From positions 37,472 through 101,471 of the IMG/VR virus record IMGVR_UViG_3300045988_037736: a DNA stretch of 64,000 bases; one strand, 5' to 3'. This DNA is from a virus. Every line of letters starts with the position of its first letter. Position 1 is the first letter of the stretch. A program made the translations under genes and the position numbers. The notes below the pieces were generated by a model. It did not search any database. It saw nothing but the letters and a program-made list of their open reading frames with translations, and had not been told where the DNA came from. This document shows, one piece after another, positions 29,887 through 56,208 of the stretch.

Positions 29887-30938
29887 TTACGTACCACTCA
29901 GCTAATCTTCTAAGGCTGTAATTCTCTTGTCTAAAGTAGATATCATATCTATAATCTATATATAATAAGGGGACATCTAATAAAGTGAAACACCTATTGG
30001 TGTATTTCCGTGAGAAGACCTAGTTATAATCAGCTCTGAATTCTGGTTTTGAGCATTAGGTAATGCTGGTATAATAAGATTAAAATATTGGCTATACCTA
30101 GTTGTATACTGAATGTTGTCCACTAGAAGTTTTAATTCGCCAGTTGTGCCATTATTATATGTAACGCTTACACCGTACCTCATATTACTATTTTGATTGG
30201 CATATTCCAGTCTAAGTACAAGAGGAAAAGAAGTATAAGTCTGGGGTGATGTAGGAATTCTAATCTCCGTTTTGTCTCCAAATGAATGACTGCTTAATTT
30301 AGTTAGTACCACCCCCTCAGGCATATCGTTCCGTATTTCTTGTATCTATGGCAGATAGGCAGGGATTTTGGCCTCCACCATGTACTTAGTCCCAGCTGTT
30401 CTAGAGAAAGAAATTACTAATGTAGAAGAAGTACTATCGTCAGTGGTATACTGTTGTCCCTCTTCCCAGGAACTGTTAGTGCTGTAGCCCCCTACAAATC
30501 CCGTTTCTAAAAATTCACTAGCTGTTACGTCCTATGTGGACTCTTCAAAGTGCCAGCCATCATTGTCATTGCCAACAGCTCTCTGTACGAATAATTTTCC
30601 AACGAAATTCTTATTTAAGAGCTGTAAAGAAATTTTGCTTGGTGTTACCCCGCCAACATCATTTTCAGGTCTAACCCTTATGTTAATGCTGCCTTTTATT
30701 GGAAACGCCCCTCCGGCCGATGCTAGTAGTTCAATAACATCAGTTGGTAGTATCGTAATACTATTCTCATCTTCTATAAGAACGTCCTCTCCATCTAGAG
30801 ATTGAGCCTGTGGATTAAGTTTCATTCCCTCAACTAGCATAGTTGAAGTAATGTCATAGAATGTACTCTGTGAATTAAGGTACAGGAGCTAGTTCTATAC
30901 TTCATCAAAAAACTTTTCACCTAAATATTTGAGATTCA
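29887..30938 (-). CDS. Hypothetical virion protein (~350 codons), TAG-recoded
   Basis: ORFs 30532..30840 and 29977..30324 are in the same frame; the start MNLKYLGEKFFDEV... is 2 nt after the upstream gene's TGA; the reading continues through TAG at 29977 to TAA ~29887. Confidence 0.45.
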
Positions 30939-30941
30939 TAT

Positions 30942-33804
30942 TCAAAATTCATTTATCTTTTTAACTATTTCAGTTGCTTCAATCTCCTGCAAGTTAGTAT
31001 AATGGCCGTCTCCCTCACCTTCAGTAAGTGTAATGGTTACTTGTTTAATAGGATACTTTACTATAAGCATCCTACCACCTACCCCAAAAGTTGGCTTATA
31101 ACATTTAATACAAAGGTAATAAATGTTTATTGCATCCTCACCAACATCAATATATTTACCTGTAAGAATAGACCAGTCATAGCCATCCTTATGAAGAGAA
31201 CATAAGAATCTGAAACCAGTATAAGGACTTCCTACCTAAGTTTTAGATGGGACAATAGTACATAGCACAGTCCTATTATCCCTCTATTCTAGTATCTCTA
31301 TAAATTTGAAATAATTTTTATTAGAAGGCTATAAAGTTTCCTGTTTGAAAGTTGTTTCTCCTTGACTTACTAAATCTAGTTCTATTATTCCTGCATCATA
31401 AGGAACCCTACTGTCAAGAGTATCTATTCTCTCATGAAGTCCACTTAAGTCATAGTCAATGAAGTTCTAATTACCCCTGAGAATCTAGTCATAAACAATC
31501 TTCCTATACTTAGGTACACCATTATTCTGTAGAACTGTAAATATTATTGGTCTATGGTCATAACCATCAGCATAGTCATACTCTTCTTCCAGAAGCTATT
31601 CAAAAGTTCTATAATCATTTTCTGATACAGTTATTTCTAATTCAAGTGCATTAGAAGAAGGTCTACTTGTATAGAAATTAATAATTCTAGAATTTACATT
31701 AGACTGTGCACTAGTAGAATTATTAACCAGTGTTTCTACCTAACTAGGCAAAGAATTCAAGGTCTAGTTGACTCTCTATACAGCACTGTTAGCATTAGCT
31801 CCAGCAATCATACATTGCTAAGATGCACTAAGTGCAGACTGAGCAGCTGCATTAGCTTCATCTGAGGCTTCTTTAAGAGCACTGGAAGGAATGGTTACTA
31901 GCTCCTTAGAGTCTTTCTTATATGCAGGAAAACTATTCACATCATCTAAGCTGTTGGCCTCTGGAAGGTCTTCAACACTTACTGAAGACTTAGAGAGAAA
32001 AGCTAGCAACTCATTAAATAGTTCATCCTTTTCCTATTTAGTCATATCTACATTATTTATTAATTAAACTTTCTGGCTTGAGATGAAGGGTCCTAGCCTC
32101 ATTCATTCTCATATTTAACCCCTTTATCCTTACATCAGCATTTAAATTAAACCTTATTCCTTTATACCTATCAAGTAAAAAAGTAGTTTTATATATGTGC
32201 CATTTATTATCAGGTTCTATTCTCAAAGTATCTTTTATTTCAATAGACTCACCATCCTAATCTACGGTAGCTATTTCTATATTACCAAATGAAGTTCCTT
32301 TAAATTTGAATGTTAAAGTAACATAGAATGGGAATTTATAATCAGGGTCTATTGCTTCTAGATTTAAAAATGGGAAGGGCTAAGTAAGAGTACAAGGGAT
32401 AGTGGAACCATTTACAGCTAATACAGGAACTCCGTCTTCTCTGATTACAGCAGCTTTAGCTCTCTATTTGGATAAGAACCCTCTTCCTACCTTAATAAAC
32501 TTAGGTCCTACTGTAAAAGGTTGGAGAATTTCAGATAACCAATATTTAGTGCTGTCAATAAAAAATGAATTAGTGAGAATATTATCAGCTTCAATTACTG
32601 TAAAAGCATTCTCTATTTTCCATTGATTACTTATAACTATTTCAAGTAATGCCCTTAGTACCTCATCTACATTATCTTTATTATCAAAAAAGATAGACTC
32701 AAATTTTATATCTGAAGCTTTAATATTGGTATGAAATGGTTCCCAACCTCCATTATTCCAGTATAGTAGATTACCCTTCCAATACCATAAGACTTCATGG
32801 TCCTATGGTTCTTTTGGAGTTTGTACTATTGCTCTAAACTTTCTCATTGCATTGCCTCAATAGTGATTAATACTTTGCTTGGGTCAGTTTGGATGTTAGC
32901 TATTATCTTAAGATAATTCCAACTATCTTCATTACCAGCTACAATGCTAGGACTATTAAATGTCTTTTGAATAGGACCCATTGAAACCTGAGGGCAATTA
33001 ACTTCAAAATCTCCATTTGAAGTGTGAACAGTCAGAACTACATTCGAAGCTTTTTTGAACTGAGCCACCCCTACAGAGTCAGTTATCTCTTTATTTATTA
33101 TAGTTGTAGAAGTTATTTCAGCTAAGTTAATAACCCCTAAATCATAAAATAATTCAGAATGGTCAAAGTGGTCAGCATCCCTTCTACAAGCTCCATCCGC
33201 AGTTAATATGTAATGCACTCTGTTACCTGATGCTGTAGTGATGGTAGCTTCTCCACCTGCATTAGGATGCCAAGAACCTACTCCAATGCCATAGTCAGCA
33301 TGAACAAGGAACTATGTTCCTGCCACCCTAGACAGCTGTTCTCTATTATATGCTTCAATCTCAGGAGAGTCACCTAGTTCAAGGTCAACATAGGTAGGAA
33401 GTAGAGTAAGGTCAATAACTCTAGTCTACTTTACAAGCCAATTCTCATTGTAGTCTACATTGAAAATAATAGCCTTGCCATCGGCAATTGCTGTTACTTG
33501 ACCATTATAAAACGTTGCTAAAATTTTGAGTGGCGCGTCGCGGTCTCTATTTACAAGTATAACAGGTACATAGTCATGTAGGGGACTCAGTTCTCTCTCT
33601 TCAAACTTTAACTTAGCCTCTGGATTGTCTTCTCCTATCGTTAATATTATATCAGTTATCTCCTCCTAGCCATCTTGTATCACCGAACTTACTATATCAG
33701 TCCATTTGCCATTGTTATGGTATTGAAGTTTGTCATTATGGAGCCACAGACTATTGGTAGGAGGGGCTGAATTTGAATGTATTATATTATCAAATTTTCT
33801 CATT
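30942..33804 (-). CDS. Hypothetical virion protein (~954 codons), TAG-recoded
   Basis: Start MRKFDNIIHSNSAPPTNS at ~33804. ORFs 32844..33218 and 31818..32009 are in the same frame; codon-by-codon reading of 31260-31380 shows TAG but no TAA/TGA; ends at TGA ~30942. Confidence 0.45.
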
Positions 33805-33832
33805 ACTTACTAGTATTTGGTTTCTTATTAAT

Positions 33833-36202
33833 CTATTTTCTTTTGAGTTCAGCATCAGTTTGAGCTTTCTTCTTATCAAAGGCTAACCTTTCTCTGTCAA
33901 GTTTGAGCCTCTCATCAAACTCTCTCATCTTTTCAAACAGATTAGCTCTTGCCTCTTCAGAAAACTCCTGCTCTTGGATGCCATCTTCCTGACTTTGAGA
34001 ACCTATACCTGCTATAAGTATCTTAGTCTCATTATCTCTCTGATTCATTGTATCTTTGAGCTGCATTTCAGCTTCCCTTATCTGAGCTTCCATCTGAGCC
34101 TATTGTTGCTGAGCCTGTAATTGCTGCTGTTGAGCTTCCTGCTGTCTTTGCATAAGCTCCTGTTCATTCTTCTCAACCATTCTCTGTTTTTCAGCAAGAG
34201 AAGAGCTATTATAGAGCTTCATGATAGTGGAGAAGGTAAGAGTCTGATTCTGCAAAGCTGCCTGAGCAAGCATATCCATCTTCTGCTGTAACTCCTGTAG
34301 TCCATTACTATTATCTACAACAAGGCCATAATCATTTTCAGAGAACTCATCTCCATCTATGTCCATAACCTTACTTGAATTATCAGAAAGAATATACTGG
34401 AACTTCTTACTTCTGCCTCTTAAAGCTATCTTAGCTGTTTCAAGGAATGCCTCAAGAACCCTCTTCTTTACATCATCATGTATGATAAAGAGCCATTCAG
34501 TTATATGAGAAGATTGTAAGGTAGCTCTTTCGACACCACCAACAGTCTCTCTATTACTTATCTGACCTTCTCTTTGCCTAGAAATACCAGCCACATCAGA
34601 CATTTCCATCTTGATAAACTCAAGAAGATTGGTATATTGCTGTATAGTATTACCAAGTTCAGCATTGACAACTCCAGAACTTGCATTGTTAAGAGCACCT
34701 GCAAGCTTACCTGTAGCAGCACCAATATTGCCTTCCTTAAAACTATCTGTAACTACAATACCATTAGTCTTAGCAAAGTACATCCATTTCTCTATCTCCC
34801 ATCCTTTAGGAACCTTAGCAAGGTCAAGGTTAATAAGCATACCCCAGTTTCTTGAGATTAGCTTGTTGAGCCTATCATGAATTGTATCATAGAGATAGTT
34901 ATAGGGCTTCATCATATCAACAAGAGAGAAAGGCTTGTTGTCATTAAGGTTATAGATAGAACCTATAATACCAAAATGGCACCTTGAAGGATTGGATAGT
35001 CTGTTATACTGAACTACTCTAGGTCTCATGTTGACATAGATGTCATTACCTATCTTTGTCCCTTCCCAGGCTTCATTGATATATAATATCTTTTCCTCCT
35101 CACCTTTGTCCTTATCTATAACGTAAGTTTCTGGGTAGAGATTAAATACCTCTTCACCTGTCTGAGGGTCGTAAGACTTAACTTTCTTAATTCTCCTTCT
35201 TGATTTCCAGTAAACTCTAAGTACCCTTATATTTCCTGCAACATCAAAAGGAAGAAGTGAAGTGCCTACACCATCTGTCATTCCTATGGGGTCCCAGAAG
35301 AAACCTTCCTGAGAAGTAAATTCTTCCCCTATCATGTGCCCATTTACAAACCCCATTCTATCATCTATGTTATCCATAGAGTCAGTTACTTGGTCTGTGT
35401 TATTGGGCATCTTTTCTATGTACTCCATGTCCTTTTTGGTAAGGACATCATAATAAGTGTCTATGATTTTACCAGGACTCCAATAGTCCTCAAGTACAAT
35501 CATATCAGCATCCTCAATCCTGTTACTATATCCTGACTTGAATACTCTGACTTTAAGAGGATTTAGTCTTTCTATGATAGGTTCACCACCTACAATATCA
35601 CATTGGTAAATCTCTTCACCTACTGCCATTGCATCAGTGAAACCTTGATTAAAGAGGAAGGGGAAGTTGAGTTCCTTGGAATAGTGGTTAAGGAGAGCAT
35701 TAGCTCTCACTTCTCTCATATCTTGCCACTCAAATGTAAAGAAGTCATTGAGCTTCTCTAGCTCTGCATTGAACTCTTCCTCTGACTGAGTCTCTTCAGA
35801 TAACAGTTGCTGTACTCTTGCAAGTAGTTCCTGCTTCTTGTTGTTCTCTATTTCAGAGATAGCATTTGGATTAGTTACAACTACCCTATAGTCAAATACT
35901 CTCTTGGACTCTTCTCCCCTAAGAACATTTAATTTACTATTCATTATAGGGTAATGCTGAATCCTTTCAGGTATGTAACCTGCCTTTATATTATCAGGGT
36001 TCAATACCATTGCAAGGTCACTCATGTGAAGCCTACCATTAAGTAAATCATAGTTGATTTTCTTATGTATCACACTCTTCCTTACCAAAGAATAGTTGAA
36101 AAATGTCTTAGAGTCAGCCCAGTCAAGGTGCTTCTTTCTCCAAGCCTTATTCTTTCTGGAGAATGGCAGTTGTTGTGGGGGTAAATTTGTGAAATCACTC
36201 AT
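33833..36202 (-). CDS. Portal protein candidate (~789 codons), TAG at 34100
   Basis: The 700-aa ORF ends with TAG (plus-strand cta at 34100-02) and continues in frame into 33833..34093. Size and position directly downstream of the terminase large subunit fit a portal protein. Confidence 0.5.
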
Positions 36203-36302
36203 ATATTCTTCAACTTAAATGTGCTGCAAAGGTAAGCAAAACCTTTAACTTGTGCAAGCCCATAAGTAAAATATTAAGTCTTAGTACTCTTTTTTGCTAA
36301 AT

Positions 36303-39300
36303 TTACTGTATATACCCTTGGGAGTAATTCCTTTGGAAGAAAGAATCATTGCCTAAGTATGAACTACTGACTTCCTCCTGTGCCTTAGCATTAAGATTAT
36401 CTCTATACAGTATAATCTTCTCTTGTCTATACAGCATAACCATACCTAATGCCCTGATTCTATCCACATTAAGTTCAGGAGTGTAGGAAATTAACTCTTC
36501 AAGTAATGCTCTATTTCTTAGAGAATAGAGCCTTGGAATATTGACCTCTTTCTCTTCTCCATCCTCCTTTATTATAGTTGGAACTGGCTGAAGTAGCCAA
36601 TCCCTTATCAGGTTATTAGCATAATTGTTGATAGTAGCATTCGCATTGATACCTTTTGCATTTGAGCCAAAGGCAGAATACTTAATCATCTGTTTGTCTC
36701 TTAAATATTCAGGAGTATCTGCCAGTAGGTGTGTGCATTCCATTCTGCTAAAGTAACCATACAGGCCCTTCTTATTGGATTCATACATGCACTTGGCATT
36801 ATAGAATAGACACAGCATTCTTACTATCTCAAAGTTATCATCTGCAAATGCCTGCCTACCAGTGTATTCTGCTACAATTCTGTCAGTAAACAGGTCAAGT
36901 ACAAAGGTTGAAGAAAGAGAAGAAGACTCTGCCTAATCATTATCCACAGGGTCATGGCCTATAATATATCTCATATTGAAATCATCCCCATTTGCTTGTT
37001 TCTCAGGCATTTCAAATATCTCAATAGCACCTACTGTTGAATTGTCAACTCCATACTTTCTGATAGGCACATCATTACCTATTCTAAACTCTACCTTATT
37101 ACCACTTGCTAGGGCAAGATTACCTATGTAAACATCATCAAAAGCATGAGGGTCTGAGTCAAGTTGAGCCAATCTCTCAGTAAGAGCTACTGTAGGAAAG
37201 TAGGCAGCCTTCACTTTAATGATAGCTTCAGCTGGTGTAATTGGGTCCTCGGCAATAACTCTTAATACTGACTTAGGGTCAGCAGAATATTTAGCTTTGT
37301 GTCTTGCCAACAGAATTTCTATGAGAGCCTTTGTTACATCAGAAACACCATCCTTGTTGTAACATCCTGCCCTATTTACATAAGAAGGAAAGAAAAATCC
37401 AAAGGTAGGCTTTCCTTGCTTAGGTCTGTCATAGACATTCTCAATAGCCAGAATATTGTAACCATCTGGATTGTAAAGAAGAGTTTTTGCCGAACTGAAG
37501 TCTGACTCATCCTCAGCAGCAGTATTATGAGTTACTATATTGTTAGCCAAGTAGGTATGACTTAATCCAGCAGTTAAATTATATACTTCTTGTTCACCTA
37601 TCTCTTCTACAGAAGTAACTTTGTGAACTATTATATCCTCTGGATATTTTTGAGCCTTCATACTCGGATTGCTATTATAATAGTCCATTATCCTTTTAAG
37701 GCAATCTCTCTTGTGCGGAACAAGAAGTTGAAGCACACCACACACTCTTGTACAATTATGTCTCCCTGATATAGATAGAGTAAACCAAGAATTTCTATCT
37801 TTCCTATCAGAACATAGTTTTGGCTTAGTCTCCACAATAGTGCCAACTACTCCAAATTTTCTCCACAGTACTTTAACTTGCTCTAATATTTTCCTATTGC
37901 TTTGAGTTAAAGATATATATCCGTCTCTATTAAAGCTTATACTACCATCAGTATCATATAATCCAGATAGCAATAGTGAGGTATCATCTCTTGTAAGAGT
38001 CTAATAGTTGATAGGAAGCCTTTTATTGGATTTTACTTGCCCCTAAATACCTAATTCTCTTAATTTATTACAAATACCTTTAATTCTTATATCCTCGTAT
38101 ATTTTTCCTTTCTTGGTAATATGAGTAGCAGATAATGACCATTCATATCTATGCTTTACATAGTCTAAAAGCTCTTTATCCTCAGAACTATACTTGGGGG
38201 ATTGCCTTAATCCATAAGAACCATCTCCAATAAGCATACCTACTAATCTAGGGTCAAACATGGTATCTGTCCCAAATATTGGAACTTCCCTACTCTCTAT
38301 AATTCTATCTCCTACACTTAAAGCTCCAGCATTTTTGAATACTTCTTCATAATACCTTATAGACCCATTATGATTCATTCTTTGTTTCTGAGTAAGAATT
38401 GGATGGTCTGTAGAGCATCTAAGTTCATTTCCATTACTCAGTTTAATAAGTACACATGGTTTTTTAGCAATACTTATAGAACTCATTATAGGTTCTTTGG
38501 TAATCCCTCTTGTGAGGTGAATATTAGGTTCAGTACCTGACTCAAAGGAGTCTGTAAATCCTATGATACCATCCTCTCTCTTTAAATCCTCTATATTGAT
38601 ATTCCTGCCATCTAATGTCCATACCTTAGTACCAGCACATACACAACCTACAAGGTACATTGTAGCAAATGTATAGTCACCATCTTCTACAGACTTTCTT
38701 GTGATGTCATACAGGGATAGAAGTCCCTTAAATGAACCCATCTCCTCGAATAGAATCCAACCTCTCTTACCTCTTAACTTCTCTGAGTCATCCTTTGCAG
38801 AAACAGCAAGCACCTGATTCAATGACCCACTTTCAATACCAAACTCATCCTTGTAGCCCATCTGCCATGCCATCTCATTAGGAGAGTTCTTTAACATGAG
38901 CCTAGGGAATGGAGTATTTTTGAAGGAGAAGTTAATTCCAGGTTTGAACTTAGAGAGTGTGCCATCCTTACTGTCACTAAGATACTCTTTCTGATAAGCA
39001 GTAAGTACAGTAATAACCCTCCTCTTTACTTCAGTAGATTCACCAAGTATAAGGTTGTGAGACATTATACTTGCAAGACTATATGACTTTGCACAATTAT
39101 GAGTAGTTATAAAGTCCCCTACTAAATAACAGGAGTCTTTAGAGTCTACAGTAACACATTTACAAGGAGATACCCCAGCATACTCAATATTGACTATGGC
39201 AGTTTTGTTCTTTCTTGATAAAGCATTGGTGCTACTATAATGTACACCACTCTTCTTCCTTGGCAAATTAAACAGTTCTTCTCCACCATATACTGCTATT

Positions 39301-40709
39301 TCATAGCAATCAGAGCATTGTATGTAACCATTAAAAGCTTTATACCTTGCTCTGCTCTTAGATATCTTGGTGTTATATCCAAGACTTCTAGCTATAAAAT
39401 CCACATCTTCGATTAGTCTTTTTGAAATAGAATTTAGTGTAGGTACTCCTCCATGTATAGAGCCATCTGTATCAAATAGCCCTTTTAGGACTTTTAATCT
39501 TACATCCCTTGAGTTGTACTTGTATTCTTCAGGAATAAACTTATCTATAGATTTTGCATTATTCAGTCCATAAGACTGCAGGATACTATTCCAATTAGGA
39601 ATATGTACTCTATAAGAATATTTACCTGCCCACTTAGTATATTTGTAGGGAATATAGTTCTTTTCTATATCAAAGTCCTTATCTATTTGGGTAAAATAGC
39701 AAGAACCATGCCTAAAGCACCCATCCCCTAATAGAAGTCCAAATGTATAAGGTTCTACCAGAGTATCTTTATATGGCAAGTTTATTCCTTCATTCCCAGG
39801 AATGAAACAGTTATATTCAATACCAGAAGGAATCCTATAAGAGGGAGTTCTATTAGTCTTGTAATTAGACAATAGCCAAGCTGTATTGACTGTCATATTC
39901 TTCCCCTTCCTCTCTATATTCCATAAGTGGTCATCAGTAGCAAACACCGTTCTGCCATCCCTAAGAGTTATCTTGTAGTAAGGAGAGACTTGGTCGTAAG
40001 GTATATCTATAACAGTACAGACAGAATTATCTGTAGCATATAATTTATCTCCTATCTTAATATCCTTCCACAGCTTCCATCCTTCTGGGGTAAACACCTT
40101 CTGGAAATAGGGGTGAGCACCCCTCTTTGCAAGTTCTATGGCATGTTTACCAGCCTCTCTTGCTTGATGAAGATAGTGAAATCTCCAATAGATTCCTTCA
40201 AAGAAGAAGGGGAAAGACTCAACTCTGACAGCTTTCCTTGTGCCAGAAATTACCTTATTTACCATCATGGGACAGTAATTAAGAAACCAATAAAGGAATC
40301 CTGTGACCCATTCTCCATCACTCTCCCTTACATAACCCTCTCTACATCTCCTCATCTCCTCATCCCAGTGCTTTCTGTATTCACTGTTAGGATTAGAATT
40401 TGGTCTTAGAAAAGTATAGCAGCCATGCTTCATAAAGTGTAAGGCTGGTTGTCTGAAATAATCCATATCCTCAAGTATATGAGGATTGGCAAGGTCTACT
40501 ATAATCCTTCCTTGCTCATCTCTTGGTCTATCCTTAGCATATACCCTATTAGGAGAGATAAGTCTTTTTATAAGTTCTACACTATTTATAGTGTCCAATA
40601 ACTCCTCCTTGACCTCCTCAGGTAAAGACCCAAGGAGTTCATCAGTCAAGGGGGTCTGGTACTCATTCATTTCAATAGCCGAGGTATTCTCCATAGATAA
40701 TATCTTCAA
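36303..40709 (-). CDS. terL: Terminase large subunit (TerL) precursor containing two LAGLIDADG inteins, with TAG codons at 38043 and 36933
   Basis: Three ORF pieces (38043..40709, 36933..37973, 36303..36818) share one frame and are joined only by TAG codons. Intein 1 (~39096..40118): N-terminal splicing blocks (TPEGWKLWKDIKIGDKL; FATDDHLW), LAGLIDADG motifs (LLLGDGCFRHGS, LKGLFDTDGSI), and ends ITTHN|C. Intein 2 (~37524..38645): starts G|CVCAGTKVWTLDG, block B CSTDHPILT, LAGLIDADG motifs (LVGMLIGDGSYG, LSGLYDTDGSI), and ends IVTHN|T. The extein has a P-loop-like AKRG...CAKS and a Walker-B-like WILFEE. Confidence 0.7.
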
Positions 40710-41085
40710 GTATTGTTCTGTCTTTGTTGTTAAATGACTTGCCGTCTATAATAAGACTGAATAGTCCTGTAACAAATTCAGACTCTATATCCTTAATAAA
40801 ACTTTCCTGTACATTAGGAGGAATGTTACTTATATTGACCTGCTTGGTCAAAGTGAGAAGTCTATGCTTCGAGTTATTACCAACTACCCATAGTATATAT
40901 TCATATCTCCTATATGACTTAAAGGTAGGATGAGGTTCTATAACTCTCTGTAGAACAAGATGTTCTTGATTACTTGGAATAACCTGAAGGTCTCTCCTCT
41001 TATTGAATATATGCACATTAAGTGACTCAATTACATCTTCAAGTGTCATATTACAAATCTTCATACATTGCTTTTTCCTGAGCAC
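40672..41085 (-). CDS. Hypothetical protein (137 aa), possible small terminase or DNA-binding protein by position
   Basis: Intact ORF immediately upstream of the terminase large subunit. Confidence 0.35.
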   Translation of the reverse strand: MLRKKQCMKICNMTLEDVIESLNVHIFNKRRDLQVIPSNQEHLVLQRVIEPHPTFKSYRRYEYILWVVGNNSKHRLLTLTKQVNISNIPPNVQESFIKDIESEFVTGLFSLIIDGKSFNNKDRTILEDIIYGEYLGY

Positions 41086-41593
41086 CTCTTACCTTATTGC
41101 TCTGAGCAATTTCCTTGGCAATAGCTGCTTCAGCTTCATTCAAATCTTTCACAAGAGTAGGAATCTGCTTGATAGTTGCAGTGATAGTATTGAGAGTATA
41201 GATAGGTTTACCCTTATCATCAAGGGCACCAAGGTCTATTTCCCTCAATAGAGTCCTCAGCTTATCAACTGCCACTCTGGTATCTTCAAGAAGTAATGCA
41301 GATGCTGGCTTGAAAGTCTTATAGAACTCCATTGCCTCAAGTACAAGGTTATCAGGCTCCCAGTCATTAGGTAAGCCTTCACCTTCCTTAATAGAAGCCT
41401 TCCTACTTTCCTCATCTATAATGTACTGATAGTCACTTCTTGGGTCAGCCATAAAATATATGTAGGAAATCTCGGCTATTGCTCTATTTTTGTTTGCAGA
41501 CCTGTCCCTGTTCCATATCTTCTTAAAAGGAGTTAATGCTAAAGCTTCAGGAGATATGATTACCTTATAACCTTCAAATTTAAGTAGTTTCAT
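41051..41593 (-). CDS. Hypothetical protein (~180 aa; real start MKLLKFEGY...)
   Basis: The ORF-track N-terminus overlaps the GIY-YIG gene; an internal ATG overlaps the GIY-YIG stop by ~14 nt (AATGAAACTACTTAA). Confidence 0.45.
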   Translation of the reverse strand: MKLLKFEGYKVIISPEALALTPFKKIWNRDRSANKNRAIAEISYIYFMADPRSDYQYIIDEESRKASIKEGEGLPNDWEPDNLVLEAMEFYKTFKPASALLLEDTRVAVDKLRTLLREIDLGALDDKGKPIYTLNTITATIKQIPTLVKDLNEAEAAIAKEIAQSNKVRGAQEKAMYEDL

Positions 41594-42245
41594 TTTTATA
41601 TTTCCATTTATAACCTCCAGCTGATGGTCTTTTACCTCTAGCACATCTTGATATGTGAGTCTCCAAAACTCCAGTATCTCTAGCTGCATCAGCTATTGAT
41701 GGGTATGTACAAATTATATTTCCTTCTTTATCACATTTAACTATTTCAATTAAGTCATGATAACTGTGATTAAGTCTCATCTTAAGCTTAGCCTCTTCAG
41801 ACTTAGGCTTTCCTTGTAAGGATAAACTTATCTTTAATTTATGCTCTATTGTGAGAGGAACACCTTTGAATCTGGAACTTACTAAGAGCTTAACATGCTC
41901 AGGTATCTTTTTACCTTTGCCTTTAACACTCATTTTTCTTCTAGTCTCTTCAGAATGCCTATATCCAAGAGACCCTTCCCCGCCATCAGTTATATTATAA
42001 GATATGCCTAGCTCCTTATATTCTTTAATTAAGGTTATCTCTAACAGATTAGCTTCCTCTTTAGTTAGTCCTTCTTTTATTATATCATGCTTAAAGTTAT
42101 CCCACCCATACTTTTCTATGGCTCTCTTAAAGATACCTGTTTTGTATCCTCTCCCCTCTTTCCATCTCTTTCCCACATTAAAAGAGGTCTGACCTATGTA
42201 GACCTTGCCATTAACTTTATTGGTGTGTTTATATACTGTGTACAT
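41580..42245 (-). CDS. GIY-YIG homing endonuclease
   Basis: GKVYIGQTS...R...EG...YNITDGG motifs. Confidence 0.8.
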   Translation of the reverse strand: MYTVYKHTNKVNGKVYIGQTSFNVGKRWKEGRGYKTGIFKRAIEKYGWDNFKHDIIKEGLTKEEANLLEITLIKEYKELGISYNITDGGEGSLGYRHSEETRRKMSVKGKGKKIPEHVKLLVSSRFKGVPLTIEHKLKISLSLQGKPKSEEAKLKMRLNHSYHDLIEIVKCDKEGNIICTYPSIADAARDTGVLETHISRCARGKRPSAGGYKWKYKNETT

Positions 42246-43929: not shown

Positions 43930-44287
43930 TAAAGGGCCTGCTGTTCTTTCTTGATGTCCTGTTATTGAAAGGTCTCTTTGGGTAAATGAACCCATAAATT
44001 GAAACATGACCTCTTCTCCAAGCCCTCTTTACAGATTTGAACTTTGACACTGCCTCAAACCTAAGTAGTGTGAGTTCCTTTACATTCTCTTTGTTCTCTT
44101 CCATGTTGTTCAATAGTAGTAAACCATTACATATCCTTCTCTTGAAGGAAGGATTGAAACCACATCCTCCCTAGGTATCTTATAATCATTGGCAAAATCT
44201 GCTAGCTCCCTGATAGTCTGAGCTTCAACAGCATTCATTATCTTTCCGTTCTTATACATATCTTCTCCCATAATATTTCGATTTAGT

Positions 44288-44358
44288 TGCGGGAGGAGGA
44301 CTCGAACCTCCGACCTTCAGGTTATGAGCCTGACTAGCTACCACTGCTAACACCCCAC
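44288..44358 (-). tRNA. tRNA-Met/Ile2 (CAT)
   Basis: Cloverleaf by eye: acceptor GTGGGGT..., anticodon loop CTCATAA, T-loop TTCGAGT. Confidence 0.7.
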
Positions 44359-44365
44359 AATATAG

Positions 44366-44436
44366 AGCAGGATAGGAGAATCGAACCCCCAAATCCACTT
44401 TGGAAGAGTGGCATTTTACCATTAAACTAATCCTGC
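44366..44436 (-). tRNA. tRNA-Gly (TCC)
   Basis: Anticodon stem CCACT/AGTGG, loop CTTCCAA; T-loop TTCGATT. Confidence 0.65.
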
Positions 44437-44445
44437 ACTTACTTG

Positions 44446-44518
44446 AGCTTCCTAGAGGACTCGAACCCCTGACATACTGAGTACAAAACAGTAGTTCTAC
44501 CAGCTGAACTAAGGAAGC
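44446..44518 (-). tRNA. tRNA-Thr (TGT)
   Basis: D-arm GTTC-AGCTGGTA-GAAC; anticodon loop TTTGTAC; T-loop TTCGAGT. Confidence 0.6.
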
Positions 44519-44852
44519 TTTCCTAAAGATTACTCAGGATTAATAAGTTTATTAAGTTCTTCTTTAAAAGTTTTGAGCCACTCTTTGTCTTGGTTGTTGG
44601 GGCTATTAAGAATAATTTTAGTCTGTGTTAGCACCATCCTAGCAATAGGGTGTGGTATCTTTACCTGTTCCATAATTATATTTTTTTTTATTTTCTAACA
44701 CTTATTTCATTTAATTTATCATAAAAATCAAGAACAAACTGTTCATCCTGCAACAGTGAGTTACTTACCTCTTTGTCAATCTGCTCTAGCTAGAGCATTA
44801 CATTGGACATAAACCATTTTAAAGCTTCCTTATTCATTGTGATTAAAGTTAG

Positions 44853-44924
44853 TCGCCCCACTCTGGCTCGAACAGAGACCAAAGGATTTAGAGTCCTCTG
44901 TGCTAACCATTACACCATGAGGCA
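44853..44924 (-). tRNA. Amber suppressor tRNA, anticodon CTA (reads UAG), tRNA-Gln-derived
   Basis: TGCCTCATGGTGTAATGGTTAGCACAGAGGACTCTAAATCCTTTGGTCTCTGTTCGAGCCAGAGTGGGGCGA. Anticodon stem GAGGA/TCCTT, loop C-T-CTA-A-A. The D-arm TGGTGTAATGGTYAGCACA is near-identical to tRNA-Gln(TTG) at 48934..49005. Confidence 0.75.
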
Positions 44925-45419
44925 ATATTTTATTAACAATGCAAAGGTATGAAAAATAATTTAAATTACCAAATAAATTGATAATAAATTTTTAATAAAA
45001 GTGTAAATAAAATGGAGATAATATAGCATAAGCTACGGTCATATACCAAGATTGATTAGACTCCAGGTCTACACTAGCAGTTCTTTCTTTTTGAACACCA
45101 AGAGAATATAATAAATTGTGAGTTCTCCATTCATTAAGTAAGCTAAACATAGTTCTGTTATTAATAGAACTGTATGGGTAAAATCTAGCTTTTAAATGAA
45201 TGAGAAACTACTTCATATCAGATAATGAAGTGATTTTATAGGAATCATAAATAGCTATATTATTATCAGATATGTCTACTTGATATTTCTGTTTATTATA
45301 CTAAACTGTGTATTTCATACTTTTACAAATAGTAAAGGGGTTATGATAACATGAATTACGCCACCTGAATATTTACAGTAAAACTCAATGTTATATAAAT
45401 ACTTAATTTCTTATTTCAG

Positions 45420-45506
45420 TACCCCCTGAGAGACTCGAACCCTCACACTACTATTACTTCATACTGGTTCCTAAGACCAGCGTGTCTACCATTCCACCAA
45501 GGGGGC
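45420..45506 (-). tRNA. tRNA-Leu (TAG)
   Basis: Type II tRNA; anticodon stem CTGGT/ACCAG, loop CTTAGGA; long variable arm. Confidence 0.7.
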
Positions 45507-45510
45507 ATTG

Positions 45511-45592
45511 TACCTCTGGAGGGATTTGAACCCTCAAGGATTAAATCCGAGGGATTTTAAGTCCCTTGTGTTTACCATTTCACCACAGAGGC
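45511..45592 (-). tRNA. tRNA-Leu (TAA)
   Basis: Type II tRNA; anticodon stem AGGGA/TCCCT, loop CTTAAAA. Confidence 0.7.
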
Positions 45593-45607
45593 TTATTGTC
45601 TCTCTTT

Positions 45608-46207
45608 TTAGAGAGAAGTATATTCTGCTTTAGCATCAAAACTTGGACATGCTTTATTTGCAAACTCCCTATGGCCATGTATTGTAGCATTAGGGTACTT
45701 TGCTTTAAGCTGTTTAAGAAGCTGTACTAGAGCAGCTTTTTGAGCTTCAGTTCTAGTATCTTTTGGAGTTTTTCCATCCTTGGCACATCCTCCGATATAG
45801 CATACTCCAATAGACATTGTATTGTGCCCAGTACAGTGTGCTCCAGATATAGCCTCTGGTCTACCAGCATGTATTGACCCATCTCTATAGATTACATAAT
45901 GATAACCTATATCAGAGAAACCTCTTTGAAGGTGCCATTGCTTAATCTGCGCAGTAGTAAAGTCCTCACCTTCAGGAGTAGCAGAACAATGAACTATAAT
46001 TTCCTTTATATTCCTCTTGTTCTGAGTTACATTCAGCTTAGACCATGTGTTATTTCCCACTATGCCATCTACAACAAGACCATTAGCCTTCTGAAATTCT
46101 TTGACTGCTTCTTCTGTGAGAGGTCCAAATATTCCATCATCTTTCAGATTAAGCTTCCTCTGAAGGAGCTTTACATTAGGACCTTTATCCCCTCTTTTTA
46201 TTACCAT
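45608..46207 (-). CDS. Endolysin: N-acetylmuramoyl-L-alanine amidase (PGRP/T7-lysozyme-type) with N-terminal peptidoglycan-binding domain
   Basis: PG_binding_1-like N-terminus (KGPNVKLLQRKLN...DGIFGPLTEEAVKEFQ); amidase_2 zinc ligands and motifs (HCSAT...GYHYVI...AHCTGHN...C). Embedded in the tRNA array. Confidence 0.85.
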   Translation of the reverse strand: MVIKRGDKGPNVKLLQRKLNLKDDGIFGPLTEEAVKEFQKANGLVVDGIVGNNTWSKLNVTQNKRNIKEIIVHCSATPEGEDFTTAQIKQWHLQRGFSDIGYHYVIYRDGSIHAGRPEAISGAHCTGHNTMSIGVCYIGGCAKDGKTPKDTRTEAQKAALVQLLKQLKAKYPNATIHGHREFANKACPSFDAKAEYTSL

Positions 46208-46230
46208 ATCTTTCTCTTTTTACTATGTAG

Positions 46231-46304
46231 TGGAACCTCAGGGAGTCGAACCCCAGCCCTCAGAGCTTCAATCTGATGTGACAAACCATCTACACCAAAG
46301 TTCC
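46231..46304 (-). tRNA. tRNA-Phe (GAA)
   Basis: Anticodon stem TCAGA/TCTGA, loop TTGAAGC; T-loop TTCGACT. Confidence 0.6.
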
Positions 46305-46369
46305 AATATTATCTATTCAGGTCTCTACCCCTGTCAGGCTTATAGATAAAAGCCAAAGTTCTATTGAAG

Positions 46370-46450
46370 TGGGAGCAAAAGGACTCGAACCTATGAACTC
46401 TTAGAGGGTTGATTTACAGTCAACTGCGATTGCCGCTACGCGATACTCCC
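46370..46450 (-). tRNA. tRNA-Tyr (GTA)
   Basis: Anticodon stem GTTGA/TCAAC, loop CTGTAAA; long variable arm. Confidence 0.65.
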
Positions 46451-46632
46451 ATATTTATTATCAAATAACTTGTCAGAGAGGAAGGAGGAACTATCCTTAA
46501 GGGACAGGTATAAATACATCACCTGTACACCTTATAGAATAGTTCTCAGCAGTCATTCTAAAATAAGCTTTGACTGCTTTCTTAATAAATCTAAGTACTC
46601 TCATAACACTGTTATTTAATTAAAATGTTATG

Positions 46633-46704
46633 TCTTCCTACAAGGATTTGAACCTTGAACCTTCTGATTAAGAGTCAGTAGCTCTACCATTGAGCTATAG
46701 GAAG
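46633..46704 (-). tRNA. tRNA-Lys (CTT)
   Basis: D-arm GCTC-AATGGTA-GAGC; anticodon loop CTCTTAA (one mismatch at the base of the stem); T-loop TTCAAAT. Confidence 0.55.
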
Positions 46705-46816
46705 TGGTAGAAGGGTATTTGTTAAGGAGTTATTTATCCCTTCCTTCTCCTTAGTAGTCAATTGTAGCTGTTTTTACGGAGGTTTTTCCATGGATAGACT
46801 ACCTGCTCCTCCAAGG

Positions 46817-46888
46817 ACTCTAGGGTGGGAATTGAACCCACAAATACTGGTTTTGCAGACCAGCTCCTAACCATTCGGAATCCTAGAG
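46817..46888 (-). tRNA. tRNA-Cys (GCA)
   Basis: Anticodon stem CTGGT/ACCAG, loop CTGCAAA; T-loop TTCAATT. Confidence 0.6.
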
Positions 46889-46946
46889 ATATAGACATAG
46901 CAGTTTGAAACCACCCCAGGGACTACTATGCCACTCATGAGTATTG

Positions 46947-47023
46947 TATGGATGGCAGGGCTTGAACCTGCGTGTGACCAACTACCCTTTCTAGTGTGTA
47001 TAAGACACAGGGGATACATCCAT
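46947..47023 (-). other. Atypical tRNA-like gene (good acceptor and T-arm; no canonical D-arm; candidate anticodon TAT)
   Basis: ATGGATG-TA-TCCCC-[TGTGT-CTTATAC-ACACA]-23-nt region containing AGTTGGT-[GCAGG-TTCAAGC-CCTGC]-CATCCAT-A. The acceptor pairs 7/7 and the T-arm is canonical; the interior is non-canonical. Confidence 0.35.
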
Positions 47024-47030
47024 ATGTTGG

Positions 47031-47102
47031 GGTGCTAGGTGAGAATTGAACTCACATCTTCCACATTCACAGTGTGGTGCTTTACCATTAAGCTACTAGT
47101 AC
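47031..47102 (-). tRNA. tRNA-His (GTG)
   Basis: Anticodon stem CCACA/TGTGG, loop CTGTGAA; discriminator C. Confidence 0.6.
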
Positions 47103-47104
47103 AG

Positions 47105-47178
47105 TTGGGATAGTAGGACTTGAACCTACGGTCTTCTGAATATCAGTCAGATGCTTTAACCATCTAAGCTATATCCCA
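47105..47178 (-). tRNA. tRNA-Ile (GAT)
   Basis: Anticodon stem TCTGA/TCAGA, loop CTGATAT; D-arm GCTT-AGATGGTTA-AAGC. Confidence 0.7.
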
Positions 47179-47184
47179 ATGTGG

Positions 47185-47256
47185 CAAAGGTGGAAGGAAT
47201 CGAACCCTCACTTGTGAATTTGGAGTTCACTGTGCTACCATTAACACTACACCAAT
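47185..47256 (-). tRNA. tRNA-Trp (CCA)
   Basis: Anticodon stem GTGAA/TTCAC, loop CTCCAAA; acceptor has two weak pairs. Confidence 0.55.
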
Positions 47257-47265
47257 GAGTAATGA

Positions 47266-47742
47266 TTATTTTCTTTTGTTTTTACCTGCGTATGTACTTG
47301 TCTGTGAATGACAGTTAGGGCATAAGAATCTTAAATTCTCTAATCTATGGTCATTATTTATACCATTTATGTGGTCTAGATGTAGAGATAGTGGCTGACC
47401 ATTCCACGAGGATATACCACATTTACTGCATTCATATTTTAGCAACTTATTGTCTATAAGCCTTCTTTTAAGTGAAGCTATATTAGCATAGCTACTATTC
47501 TTTACTAGTATGTTCTCAATGGGATATACTTGCGTTGGAGATTTTATGCTTACATCTCCAAAGTGAGATGTTGAACATCCTAGTTCTTGGATTCTTCTTT
47601 TCAAGACATCTTGTGAAGAATCCCCTTTAGTAGTTAGTCCTAATGCTCTCAGGGTATCAGAGTAACTATTAACTCTATTTATTAAATTTATAAACTCCTT
47701 ATCAGAGATACTATATACTTTACTTGTACCTTTTCTTCTCAT
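47266..47742 (-). CDS. HNH homing endonuclease
   Basis: C-terminal CxxC...H-N...H...CxxCH (ECSKCG...HLDHINGINNDHRLENLRFLCPNCH) HNH zinc-finger nuclease motif; within the tRNA array. Confidence 0.8.
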   Translation of the reverse strand: MRRKGTSKVYSISDKEFINLINRVNSYSDTLRALGLTTKGDSSQDVLKRRIQELGCSTSHFGDVSIKSPTQVYPIENILVKNSSYANIASLKRRLIDNKLLKYECSKCGISSWNGQPLSLHLDHINGINNDHRLENLRFLCPNCHSQTSTYAGKNKRK

Positions 47743-47744
47743 AG

Positions 47745-47830
47745 TGGTAGGTAAAAGAATCGAACTTTTACTAGTACCATACCTACCAGTTGCTACCTTT
47801 AACCACCCCCTGTAGCTAGGTTGAGTTATA
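47745..47830 (-). other. Atypical tRNA-like element (acceptor/T-arm minihelix GGTAGGT...AAAAG-TTCGATT-CTTTT-ACCTACC-A; possible D-arm-less tRNA with loop GGTATGG)
   Basis: Perfect T-arm plus a 7-bp acceptor-like helix only ~53 nt apart; an upstream 7-bp stem ACTGGTA/TACTAGT with a 7-nt loop. No canonical cloverleaf found by eye. Confidence 0.3.
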
Positions 47831-47903
47831 CGACACTCAGAACAGAGCTAATATCTGAACATGTTACGTTGAGTCTTACACTAGTACTATTCTCTTTATT
47901 AGG

Positions 47904-47974
47904 CTGGGATAGAGAGAATCGAACTCTCACCAAGAGATTAACAGTCTCACGCTCGACCTTCGAGCTATATCCCA
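47904..47974 (-). tRNA. tRNA-Asn (GTT)
   Basis: D-arm GCTC-GAAGGTC-GAGC; anticodon loop CTGTTAA; T-loop TTCGATT. Confidence 0.65.
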
Positions 47975-48059
47975 AAGTGGGCAGTTTCTTTATCCTCTAA
48001 CTGCCGAAAAGAGGGACTAACAACAGTCCTACAATTTTATGAAAACATGAAAAACAAAG

Positions 48060-48133
48060 TGGACAATGAGGGACTTGAACCCTGAACTTCTCCTTGCAAA
48101 GGAGATGTGTTAGCCAATTACACCACAACGCCC
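48060..48133 (-). tRNA. tRNA-Ala (TGC), imperfect acceptor but G3:U70 and A73 present
   Basis: Anticodon stem TCTCC/GGAGA, loop TTTGCAA; D-arm GTGT-AATTGGCTA-ACAC. Confidence 0.5.
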
Positions 48134-48139
48134 ATTAAG

Positions 48140-48214
48140 TAGAGTAGACAAGACTCGAACTTGCAGTATCACTTCATCCCAAATGAAGGGGGTTACCTAT
48201 TACCCTACTACTCT
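48140..48214 (-). tRNA. tRNA-Pro (TGG)
   Basis: Anticodon stem CTTCA/TGAAG, loop TTTGGGA; D-arm GGGT-AATAGGTA-ACCC. Confidence 0.65.
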
Positions 48215-48220
48215 ATGTTG

Positions 48221-48305
48221 AGGAGAGCATTGGACTCGAACCAAAGCCAAATTAATGACCACACTATTTAGCAGATAGGTTTATCACCTTGATAAATTAC
48301 TCTCC
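48221..48305 (-). tRNA. tRNA-Ser (GCT)
   Basis: Type II tRNA; anticodon loop CTGCTAA; long variable arm. Confidence 0.55.
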
Positions 48306-48494
48306 AAGTTTCTTATATAAACCGCAGCAACAGTGGTCTAGTACTCTGTAGTTTGAGCAAGGACAGTGCTTATCTTCAGAGTTATTCTGACAAGGACACA
48401 GTCCATTGTTCTGTTCAACTCTTTTAAGTATTGAGTTGACTACTTTATCATTAGGGTTGAGCACCCACCCTTCTTTTCTCAGAATTGTTATCAT
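48297..48494 (-). CDS. Small Cys-rich protein with CPC...CPC...CHC-like motif (ferredoxin-thioredoxin-reductase catalytic-chain-like)
   Basis: MITILRKEGW...LCPCQNNSEDKHCPCSNYRVLDHCCCGLYKK. Start placed at an internal Met because the ORF-track N-terminus overlaps tRNA-Ser(TGA). Lies between two tRNA-Ser genes. Confidence 0.35.
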   Translation of the reverse strand: MITILRKEGWVLNPNDKVVNSILKRVEQNNGLCPCQNNSEDKHCPCSNYRVLDHCCCGLYKKLGE

Positions 48495-48496
48495 AG

Positions 48497-48583
48497 AGGA
48501 AGCCTGAGGACTCGAACCCCACCCACTTTCACATGAGCATTCAGTTTTCAAGACTGCTTCTATCCCTGATAGATTAGACTTCC
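48497..48583 (-). tRNA. tRNA-Ser (TGA)
   Basis: Type II tRNA; acceptor GGAAGTC/GGCTTCC; 3-bp D-stem; anticodon loop CTTGAAA; long variable arm. Confidence 0.55.
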
Positions 48584-48617
48584 ATTTGGCTCCTCTGAGC
48601 CTTTGTTACATAGCCAG

Positions 48618-48691
48618 CAGCCCATGGGGGAATTGAACCCCATCCCTCACATTGACAGTGTGATATGCAAAACCATTACACTTCATGAGCT
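48618..48691 (-). tRNA. tRNA-Asp (GTC)
   Basis: Anticodon stem TCACA/TGTGA, loop CTGTCAA. Confidence 0.6.
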
Positions 48692-48699
48692 ATATATTG

Positions 48700-48772
48700 T
48701 AGTGCCACTGGGGTTTGAACCCAGATTACTGCCTTGAAAGGGCAGTTTCCTGACCATTTAGAAGATGGCACC
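48700..48772 (-). tRNA. tRNA-Glu (TTC)
   Basis: Anticodon stem CTGCC/GGCAG, loop CTTTCAA; T-loop TTCAAAC. Confidence 0.65.
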
Positions 48773-48857
48773 ATGCACCCTACTTGCACCTTCACAGGCT
48801 AGGTAGGTAATGATTCTCACTTCTTTGCCATTTACATTCTTTTCACGAACAAGTTTG

Positions 48858-48929
48858 TACTCCCTGTAAGACTCGAACTTACAACTTAGGGCTTAGAAGA
48901 CCCTTGTTCTTCCATTGAACTAAGGGAGC
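48858..48929 (-). tRNA. tRNA-Arg (TCT)
   Basis: D-arm GTTC-AATGGAA-GAAC; anticodon loop CTTCTAA. Confidence 0.65.
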
Positions 48930-48933
48930 ATAG

Positions 48934-49005
48934 TTGCCACTAAAGGACTTGAACCCTTACACTCAGAACCAAAATCTGATGTGCTGACCATTACACCAAG
49001 TGGCA
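48934..49005 (-). tRNA. tRNA-Gln (TTG)
   Basis: Anticodon stem TCAGA/TCTGA, loop TTTTGGT; body nearly identical to the CTA suppressor. Confidence 0.65.
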
Positions 49006-55798: not shown

Positions 55799-55872
55799 GC
55801 CCTCATAGCTCATCAGGATAGAGCAACAGTTTCCTAAACTGTAGGTGGAAGGTTCGAGTCCTTCTGGGGGTA
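55799..55872 (+). tRNA. tRNA-Arg (CCT)
   Basis: GCCCTCA-TA-GCTC-ATCAGGATA-GAGC-A-ACAGT-TTCCTAA-ACTGT-AGGTG-GAAGG-TTCGAGT-CCTTC-TGGGGGT-A. Confidence 0.7.
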
Positions 55873-56135
55873 CTAAACAATTAAAGTAAGAAGGAAAATG
55901 AAAACAGAAACAATGGAGAAAGCAATACTGATTTTTCAGTGCATAGCAATTACTGTAGCCAGCCTATTCTATTTGATAGGTATGACACTTGATGCCATAT
56001 ATCTAGTAGCATTAGCAATATACGTAAAGAAGTGATGCAAATGGTTCCATAGCTCAAATGGATAGAGCAACAGACTTAAGATACTTTAACTCTAAGGATT
56101 TCATAGTATAGAAATTTATTACTAACTTTGCATAA

Positions 56136-56208
56136 CTCCCCTTAGTTCAGCGGATAGTAACAATGGTCTTCTAAACCATAAACCCCAGTTCGAGTCTGGG
56201 AGGGGAGA
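56136..56208 (+). tRNA. tRNA-Arg (TCT)
   Basis: CTCCCCT-TA-GTT-CAGCGGATAGT-AAC-A-ATGGT-CTTCTAA-ACCAT-AAAC-CCCAG-TTCGAGT-CTGGG-AGGGGAG-A. Confidence 0.7.

Follow-up and report, generated by a model that had tools for sequence, protein, structure and literature searches.

Two probable mobile inteins in the terminase large subunit of a TAG-recoding crAss-like phage of the human gut

Inteins of phage terminases and the studied locus

Inteins in the terminase large subunit (TerL) are known from mycobacteriophages and from crAss-like phages. Here we consider a window, that is, the whole analysed stretch of 64,000 nucleotides (nt) at positions 37,472 to 101,471 of the IMG/VR record IMGVR_UViG_3300045988_037736, where an earlier note, made from the letters alone, had proposed a crAss-like TerL gene interrupted by two LAGLIDADG inteins. 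The junctions, the motifs and the homology came out as proposed. We conclude that the region is, very probably, the TerL gene of a crAss-like human-gut phage with a genome of about 101 kb, and that this gene carries two mobile inteins, each bearing a homing endonuclease. The phage belongs to the Steigviridae (the beta group), its nearest cultured relative being Bacteroides phage crAss001. The intein in the putative Walker A loop is denoted below intein 1 (site a), and the one in the putative ATPase C-motif, intein 2 (site b).

In the Delta group of crAss-like phages TerL "typically contains an intein" (Yutin et al. 2021, PMC7886860). The TerL of the Delta-group metagenome-assembled genome (cMAG) OBYQ01000140 (PMC7886860, Fig. 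7b) resembles that of the window: it is formed by three in-frame pieces with two Hint-Hop inteins, and reassigned TAG codons are present in both the extein and the intein parts. Compared by its published description, OBYQ01000140 comes from the Suoliviridae and uses TAG heavily, whereas the Beta-group TerL of the window has three TAG codons. A Beta-group genome at an early stage of TAG reassignment, OFRY01000050, is described in the same paper (PMC7886860). The window is not that genome: OFRY01000050 has 8 tRNAs and 15 TAG codons in TerL, versus 25 tRNAs in the 64-kb window and three TAG codons.

The TerL inteins of mycobacteriophages are situated in the P-loop, Walker B and the C-motif, and belong to classes 1 and 3 (Kelley et al. 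2016, PMC5050341). The P-loop inteins TerL1-a and TerL1-b are one residue apart and TerL6-f is in the C-motif (PMC5050341), a clustering in the ATPase domain like that in the window. As in the crAss-like TerL considered here, class 1 and class 3 (WCT) inteins are found side by side, and each gene offers several alternative sites. The differences are the following. The host protein in the window is of another TerL family, matching no Pfam terminase model. The P-loop insertion lies three residues upstream of the classic point between Lys and Ser or Thr, and its +1 residue is Cys. Finally, in sister genomes of the window the nuclease domain is invaded by inteins as well (sites c and d below).

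Class 3 inteins are defined by the lack of a nucleophile at A1 and by the WCT triplet at B:12, F:4 and G:5 (PMC2807308, PMC5050341). Nearly all characterised ones have Ser or Thr at +1 (PMC2807308, PMC5222942); as of 2016, Cys+1 within the class was known only for Bvi IcmO (PMC5222942). Intein 1 is similar to the class 3 inteins MP-Be DnaB (PMC2807308), 6bs8 (PMC6195587) and Bvi IcmO (PMC5222942) in having no N-terminal nucleophile, in the WCT triplet, in the terminal His-Asn and in being inserted in a P-loop ATPase of phage type, while the Cys+1 is shared with Bvi IcmO. The identity to this set is about 25–30% over the splicing blocks. Unlike 6bs8 and Bvi IcmO, which are mini-inteins, intein 1 keeps a full LAGLIDADG endonuclease, and it keeps the block B Thr (TDDH), absent from many class 3 inteins.

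Within the Steigviridae, the TerL inteins of Bacteroides phages DAC15/DAC17 and of the uncultured phage cr111_1 belong with intein 1 to an "AHPY/AFAY" class 3 family (39–42% identity) and are inserted in the same Walker A loop. These are the closest TerL copies of the family, at 41% for DAC15/DAC17 and 39% for cr111_1. The insertion points, marked here and below by a slash, are shifted by 1–3 residues: RG/CAKS in the window, RGK/SKS in cr111_1 and RGAGK/S in DAC15. DAC15 and cr111_1 have Ser+1 and a single intein each, whereas the window has Cys+1 and two inteins. PI-SceI, the yeast VMA1 intein, matches the endonuclease/DNA-recognition region and the C-terminal HINT part of the intein 1 family (E 3.6e-12). 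However, it is a class 1 intein of a eukaryotic V-ATPase, and the likeness is at the domain level only.

The TerL gene and the structure of its inteins

The features are listed in Table 1. Translation of 36303..40709 on the minus strand yields a single frame, closed by TAA at 36303-36305 and otherwise broken by nothing but three TAG codons; the plus strand has only short open reading frames across this region. The earlier note named no strand. The start is assigned to the ATG at 40694 (minus strand; MENTSAIEM...), common to the intein-free homologues. Because of this match the precursor has 1463 amino acids (aa), and not about 1469 codons as the earlier note had it, while its claim of one frame containing TAG codons stands. 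A chance origin of 1463 codons free of TAA and TGA at 37.7% GC is ruled out (rough estimate e^-70).

Removal of aa 193-533 and aa 684-1057 leaves an extein of 748 aa, close to the 750 or so proposed earlier. This extein aligns contiguously with the large terminase of crAss001, gp19: tblastn gives one unbroken piece with 79% identity, which takes in 99% of the query. The multiple alignment is gap-free, with no extra residue at AIELAKRG/CAKSYSLA or at ATMYLVG/TAAE(D or S)ESDF, and the predicted spliced junctions are ELAKRG-CAK at the intein 1 site and MYLVG-TAAEDESDFSSAK at the intein 2 site. The extein matches PHROG 6681, "terminase large subunit" (E 3e-94), and the gene adjoins the portal gene, as it does in crAss001.

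The best 120 homologues in a collection of 5.8 billion proteins are all intein-free, with lengths of 740–751 aa and identity of 95–97%. The intein-free TerL is the norm for this phage species. The exact 883-aa N-terminal fragment of the TerL of the window is present on eight public contigs of 50–200 kb, among them contigs from the sequencing run ERR636403.

Intein 2 starts with Cys684 (Cys1), its position being set by the gap-free crAss001 alignment, and begins CVCAGTKVWTLDG. Its junctions are YLVG/CVCAGT and NIVTHN/TAAED, block B is CSTDHPILT, block G is NIVTHN, and Thr1058 is at +1. It matches the Pfam families Intein_splicing (PF14890; 46.3 bits, gathering score 35.8) and LAGLIDADG_3 (PF14528; E 5e-16), as well as TIGR01445 intein_Nterm (26.2 bits, cutoff 24.5), and its PDB matches are the DnaB and gp41-1 inteins. 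Intein 2 thus reads as a standard class 1 LAGLIDADG intein inside the putative ATPase C-motif (VG/T). At the exact insertion point it is missing from crAss001 and from the genomes L047 and L104, and the site is occupied likewise in L039, L040, L041, L115 and cr53_1. The relatives of intein 2 are few, and nearly all of them share its position in the TerL of crAss-like phages: L039 (99% identity), L040 and L041 (57%), and cr53_1 of the Suoliviridae (34%), the further ones being L115, Dulem viruses 41 and 42, and MT835482. The next-best matches are portal inteins of mycobacteriophages, at about 24%.

The TerL of L115 (L115:3859-7212; IMGVR_UViG_3300001598_000140) is 55% identical and carries a homologue of intein 2 in the same place of the C-motif. 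It contains 32 in-frame TAG codons, the recoding being far more advanced than in the window.

Intein 1 has the junctions ELAKRG/AHPYFQ...FITTHN/CAKS, starting with Ala193 and followed by Cys534 at +1. Block B is TVFATDDHLW (His256, Trp258), block F is CKCVTVD (Cys513), and block G is ITTHN (Thr531). It splits the putative Walker A motif three residues ahead of the P-loop Lys, the motif being placed by the weak T4 alignment described below; the earlier note had likewise put it within a P-loop-like element. It matches Pfam LAGLIDADG_3 (PF14528; E 5.5e-10) and Hom_end. In the PDB the best match to the single sequence is 6bs8, the DnaBi1 intein of M. smegmatis, which is of class 3, with HLW set on H65-Q-W67, KCV on R-C118-V and THN on T137-H138-N139; the roles of His65/Trp67, Cys118 and Thr137-His138-Asn139 are those described for 6bs8 (PMC6195587). 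In seven crAss-phage relatives Ala1, His64, Trp66, Cys321, Thr339, His340 and Asn341 are invariant, and a profile of seven related crAss inteins matches PI-SceI (3.6e-12), 6bs8 (1.3e-9) and 6rix, the class 3 DnaB intein of M. chimaera (3.9e-9). Members of the wider family occur in 820 phage records of GenBank; their host proteins are TerL, helicases and further P-loop ATPases, and the usual insertion point is GK/S or GK/T.

A decaying member of this family is seen at the GK/S site of a TerL with 54% identity (L121:4678-5547, and L122). It has 290 aa, has lost the first LAGLIDADG motif, and Trp at B:12 is replaced by Phe (HLF).

All the motifs quoted in the earlier note (the splicing blocks, FATDDHLW, CSTDHPILT and the paired LAGLIDADG motifs) are present in the precursor. 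The splice residues agree with it at the terminal Asn and at Cys+1 and Thr+1; position 1 is Cys in intein 2 and Ala in intein 1. As for intein models, intein 2 passes the Pfam and TIGR01445 splicing models, whereas intein 1 matches endonuclease models only.

Several points weigh against the interpretation of the region as a TerL gene with two active inteins. The extein yields no family in Pfam or NCBIfam searches, and a PDB sequence search with a profile of 12 TerL sequences gives no match. The AlphaFold model of an intein-free homologue (P0001), built from a shallow alignment of 12 sequences at 96–100% identity, has a pLDDT of 29 and is unusable as a check of the TerL fold. The hhalign alignment of the extein with T4 gp17 is weak (E 0.032), a guide to the motifs and not a proof. 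In it, Walker A is KRGCAKS in the extein and SRQLGKT in gp17, and Walker B is GWILFEE and AMIYIDE, respectively. By eye, YIIGHDPVD, CMYESNKKG and NVDRIRAL resemble the regions of D401, E458 and D542 of gp17, the Asp/Glu/Asp triad of its RNase H-like nuclease. Since Pfam, NCBIfam and PDB miss the crAss TerL, the motif assignment rests on this weak alignment and the visual likeness. Further, intein 1 matches neither Pfam Intein_splicing nor TIGR01445. This is expected, as it has no Cys1, and its HINT assignment therefore rests on the PDB and profile matches and the motif alignment. Cys534 is a minority Cys+1 state, atypical for class 3. Finally, the splicing and the endonuclease activity of both inteins are predictions from the sequence.

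Table 1. Positions of the TerL gene, its exteins, inteins and motifs, and of the suppressor tRNA in the window
Feature	Position	Strand	Remark
TerL precursor, coding sequence	36303..40694	-	1463 codons + TAA; 3 in-frame TAG, most likely read as Gln
N-extein, aa 1-192, ends in first half of Walker A (..ELAKRG)	40119..40694	-	alignment to crAss001 gp19 and L039
Intein 1, aa 193-533, 341 aa	39096..40118	-	exactly these 1023 nt missing from L039
LAGLIDADG motifs of intein 1, FGLLLGDGCF and LKGLFDTDGSI	39714-39749 and 39456-39488	-	
Middle extein, aa 534-683, from CAKS (second half of Walker A) to ..MYLVG	38646..39095	-	
Putative Walker B, GWILFEE, in middle extein	38742-38762	-	
Intein 2, aa 684-1057, 374 aa, predicted class 1, with two TAG codons	37524..38645	-	Pfam, TIGR01445, alignments
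LAGLIDADG motifs of intein 2, LVGMLIGDGSY and LSGLYDTDGSI	38214-38246 and 37938-37970	-	
In-frame TAG, precursor aa 884, endonuclease domain of intein 2	38043..38045	-	TAG shared with L039
In-frame TAG, precursor aa 898, intein 2	38001..38003	-	aligned to Gln in L040 intein
C-extein, aa 1058-1463, TAAED... (end of C-motif) and nuclease domain	36306..37523	-	
Putative nuclease motifs in C-extein: Asp, Glu, Asp	36936-36968, 36765-36791, 36444-36470	-	
In-frame TAG, precursor aa 1254, nuclease domain	36933..36935	-	aligned to conserved Gln of DPVDNDQAESS
Empty intein site c, Glu1305/Ser1306, beside putative catalytic nuclease Glu	36777..36782	-	L039: 335-aa intein, class 3 by its features
Empty intein site d, Asn1345/Ala1346	36657..36662	-	L100 and L114: 333-aa intein, class 3 by its features
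Suppressor tRNA, anticodon CUA	44852..44924	-	ARAGORN; Rfam tRNA 55 bits

Occupied and empty sites in near-identical genomes

The window was compared with IMG/VR genomes in which the TerL extein shares 94% identity or more with its own. The intein sets are a and b in the window, b and c in L039, d only in L100 and L114, and none in L047 and L104 (L108 is the same genome as L039). Thus there are four sites in one gene, in Walker A (a), the C-motif (b), the nuclease Glu motif (c) and a second place in the nuclease domain (d). The DNA of L039 is 98–99.8% identical to that of the window, and intein 1 (1023 nt) is missing from it to the nucleotide. L039 has a third intein, at site c, with the junctions CMYE/AHPYSQ...VVTHN/CNKKG, and the single intein of L100 and L114 at site d has FGSN/AHPYYE...VTTHN/CKGIN. 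The inteins at a, c and d belong to one class 3 "AHPY" family with pairwise identity of 37–41%. The +1 residue is changed at the occupied sites, from Ser1306 to Cys at c (L039) and from Ala to Cys at d (L100, L114). As the Cys codon is not native at c and d, the intein may have brought its own +1 nucleophile when colonising the site. Apart from this TGT codon, no convincing homing-site sequence is shared by the DNA at sites a, c and d.

The extein coding sequences of the window and L039 differ by six single-nucleotide polymorphisms (SNPs) in the first 150 nt and two in the middle of the gene; one SNP is situated 4 nt from site a, and 16 SNPs are found within about 45 nt straddling site c. This divergent tract of L039 is unlike every other allele compared. 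Together with the replacement of Ser1306 by Cys, it is the pattern that would be expected if homing from a diverged donor were accompanied by co-conversion. L100 and L104 agree at site d except for the intein itself and the +1 codon, which is GCA in L104 and TGT in L100. The precise insertions and short divergent junction tracts point to recent homing, and the polymorphism data appear to favour three independent recent gains. We lean, although by no large measure, towards the view that in this crAss-like species TerL serves as a landing pad, offering inteins four alternative sites or more, and that these sites record ectopic transposition of a class 3 family bringing its own Cys+1.

An alternative is that the difference between a and b in the window and b and c in L039 arose by precise loss of inteins, through recombination with intein-free alleles, and not by homing. 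Such alleles are abundant in the population. Moreover, searches for a near-identical donor of intein 1 gave nothing closer than 34% identity in IMG/VR, 41% in GenBank phages and 52–67% in the set of 5.8 billion proteins. This tells against recent gain, as does the fact that, for want of a close donor, the choice between gain in the lineage of the window and loss in L039 is made by the flanking SNPs only. At that, the protein-collection search with intein 1 missed the window's own 883-aa fragment, although it is present on the eight contigs, and therefore the absence of close relatives is weaker evidence than it appears. The flanks themselves speak for homing. The empty site a of L039 has flanks of the window type, and not those of the common intein-free alleles L047 and L104 or of L100, so this site does not look imported. 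At c the divergent tract and the new Cys are on the intein-bearing allele, as for co-conversion during gain, and at d nothing but the intein and its +1 codon distinguishes the occupied allele from L104. We consider loss to be an unlikely explanation, if the most serious competitor of gain by homing.

Upstream of TerL (40726..41026) the window and L039 further differ by about 55 SNPs within 300 nt, and inside the portal gene (35639..35990) by about 33 within 350 nt. These SNP-dense patches suggest mosaic recombination apart from the inteins.

Predicted splicing, TAG recoding and annotation

The likely sequence of events is as follows. The 1463-aa precursor would be translated late in infection, with the CUA suppressor tRNA of the phage reading the three UAG codons as Gln, and two protein-splicing reactions would rebuild the 748-aa TerL. 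In intein 2, Cys684 would undergo an N-S acyl shift, Thr+1 would take over the N-extein and Asn1057 would cyclise, restoring the ATPase C-motif ..YLVG/TAAE... Intein 1 has no N-terminal nucleophile (Ala193), and here Cys513 of block F would attack the bond between Gly192 and Ala193, the N-extein would move to Cys534 (+1) and Asn533 would cyclise, restoring the Walker A loop AKRG/CAKS. At the level of DNA, when a relative with an intein-free TerL allele co-infects the cell, the LAGLIDADG domains would cut that allele and the intein would be copied into it.

The route proposed for intein 1 follows its class 3 signature, that is, the non-nucleophilic Ala193 with Trp258 (B:12), Cys513 (F:4) and Thr531 (G:5), so the mechanism is predicted to differ from that of intein 2. 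It could be argued that intein 1 is a real intein splicing by the class 2 (KlbA-type) route, with Cys+1 attacking the N-terminal junction directly: Ala1 with Cys+1 is the class 2 combination, and Cys+1 is atypical for class 3 (PMC2807308, PMC5222942). But the three WCT residues are all there, are invariant in the seven relatives and are aligned to the WCT triplet of 6bs8. Class 2 inteins have Asp at F:4, and the close relatives of intein 1 in DAC15 and cr111_1 have Ser+1. Hence we find the class 2 route improbable.

The reading of TAG as a sense codon, also proposed in the earlier note, is borne out by its position at a conserved Gln, by the CUA tRNA and by the TAG-rich late genes. In the C-extein, DPVDND(TAG)AESS aligns with DPVDNDQAESS, and codon 13 of TerL is TAG in L039 and CAG in the window. 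The CUA tRNA gene is located about 4 kb from TerL, and its 5' half (the acceptor and the D-arm) resembles the tRNA-Gln of the window. The 1609-codon frame at 9736..14565 (minus strand) has 40 TAG codons versus 22 CAA and CAG together. Thus TAG is a sense codon in this phage. It most likely stands for Gln, the likeness to tRNA-Gln suggesting that the suppressor is charged with Gln.

It follows that the TAG codons in intein 2 are no sign of decay. This bears on the possibility that one or both inteins no longer splice and the TerL allele is dead, belonging to a defective phage or a decaying gene. In its favour are the two TAG codons within the endonuclease domain of intein 2 and the fact that the intein-free allele is far commoner. 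However, all catalytic positions are intact in both inteins, and the 4.4-kb frame has neither TAA, TGA nor a frameshift. TAG is sense by the suppressor tRNA, by the 40 codons in one other open reading frame and by its use in the portal gene. The allele of the window is carried by eight genome-sized contigs, and L039 keeps intein 2 with the same TAG codons. A dead allele is therefore very improbable. The weakest alternative, namely that the inserts are introns, free-standing homing-endonuclease genes or an assembly chimera, can draw on the group I introns of crAss-like phages and on the GIY-YIG endonuclease gene just upstream of TerL, yet it is hardly credible given that the inserts are in frame, of 1023 and 1122 nt (multiples of 3) and bounded by HINT blocks A and G, that Rfam yields no intron family within 36000-45200, that the Logan and ENA assemblies of ERR636403 contain the same structure, and that L039 holds intein 2 independently.

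The upstream gene mentioned is a free-standing homing-endonuclease gene with GIY-YIG and faint NUMOD3 matches, at 41580..42245 (minus strand), about 0.9 kb from TerL. In crAss001 an "intron endonuclease", gp18, directly precedes TerL.

Other long TAG-rich frames without TAA or TGA are found on the minus strand at 6943..9699, 29887..30948 and 30942..32063. The recoding is heavy in some late genes and light in TerL (three TAG codons) and in the portal gene (two). The latter, at 33803..36214 (minus strand), reaches 803 codons only with readthrough of its two TAG codons, standard calling yielding a 700-aa fragment. The window has an array of 21 tRNA genes at 44286..49005 (minus strand), including the CUA suppressor, and four more at 55799..61392 (plus strand), 25 in total.

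Standard annotation splits the TerL gene of the window, an essential one, into fragments of 883, 346 and 161–171 aa. In RefSeq the 1110-aa intein-bearing TerL of the cultured phage DAC15 (NC_055832, L042:1898-5230) goes under "DarB-like antirestriction", in GenBank under "hypothetical protein". Genes with inteins in two Klebsiella phages, N1M2 and Miami, and in Clostridium phage phi8074-B1 bear the same RefSeq label, which has probably spread from the intein part. Fragmented and mislabelled in this way, intein-bearing TerLs distort the TerL-based taxonomy of crAss-like phages and their gene counts.

The earlier note held two inteins in a TAG-recoded crAss-like TerL to be notable. The inteins are real, but the case is less notable than first claimed, because similar TerL inteins have been described, a two-intein TAG-recoded crAss-like TerL in 2021 (PMC7886860) and P-loop and C-motif inteins in 2016 (PMC5050341). 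What is not explicitly described in these papers is the class 3 nature, as judged from the motifs, and the Cys+1 of a Walker A intein in the Steigviridae, its non-canonical insertion point, and the four-site polymorphism among genomes with at least 94% identical TerL. The finding leaves unchanged the knowledge of how terminases or inteins work. Its value is in the window and its sister genomes, which provide, for four sites of a single gene, clean alleles with and without the intein, including the rarely described class 3 inteins with Cys+1. This set, from gut phages with cultured relatives (crAss001, DAC15), suits the study of homing, co-conversion and ectopic site acquisition.

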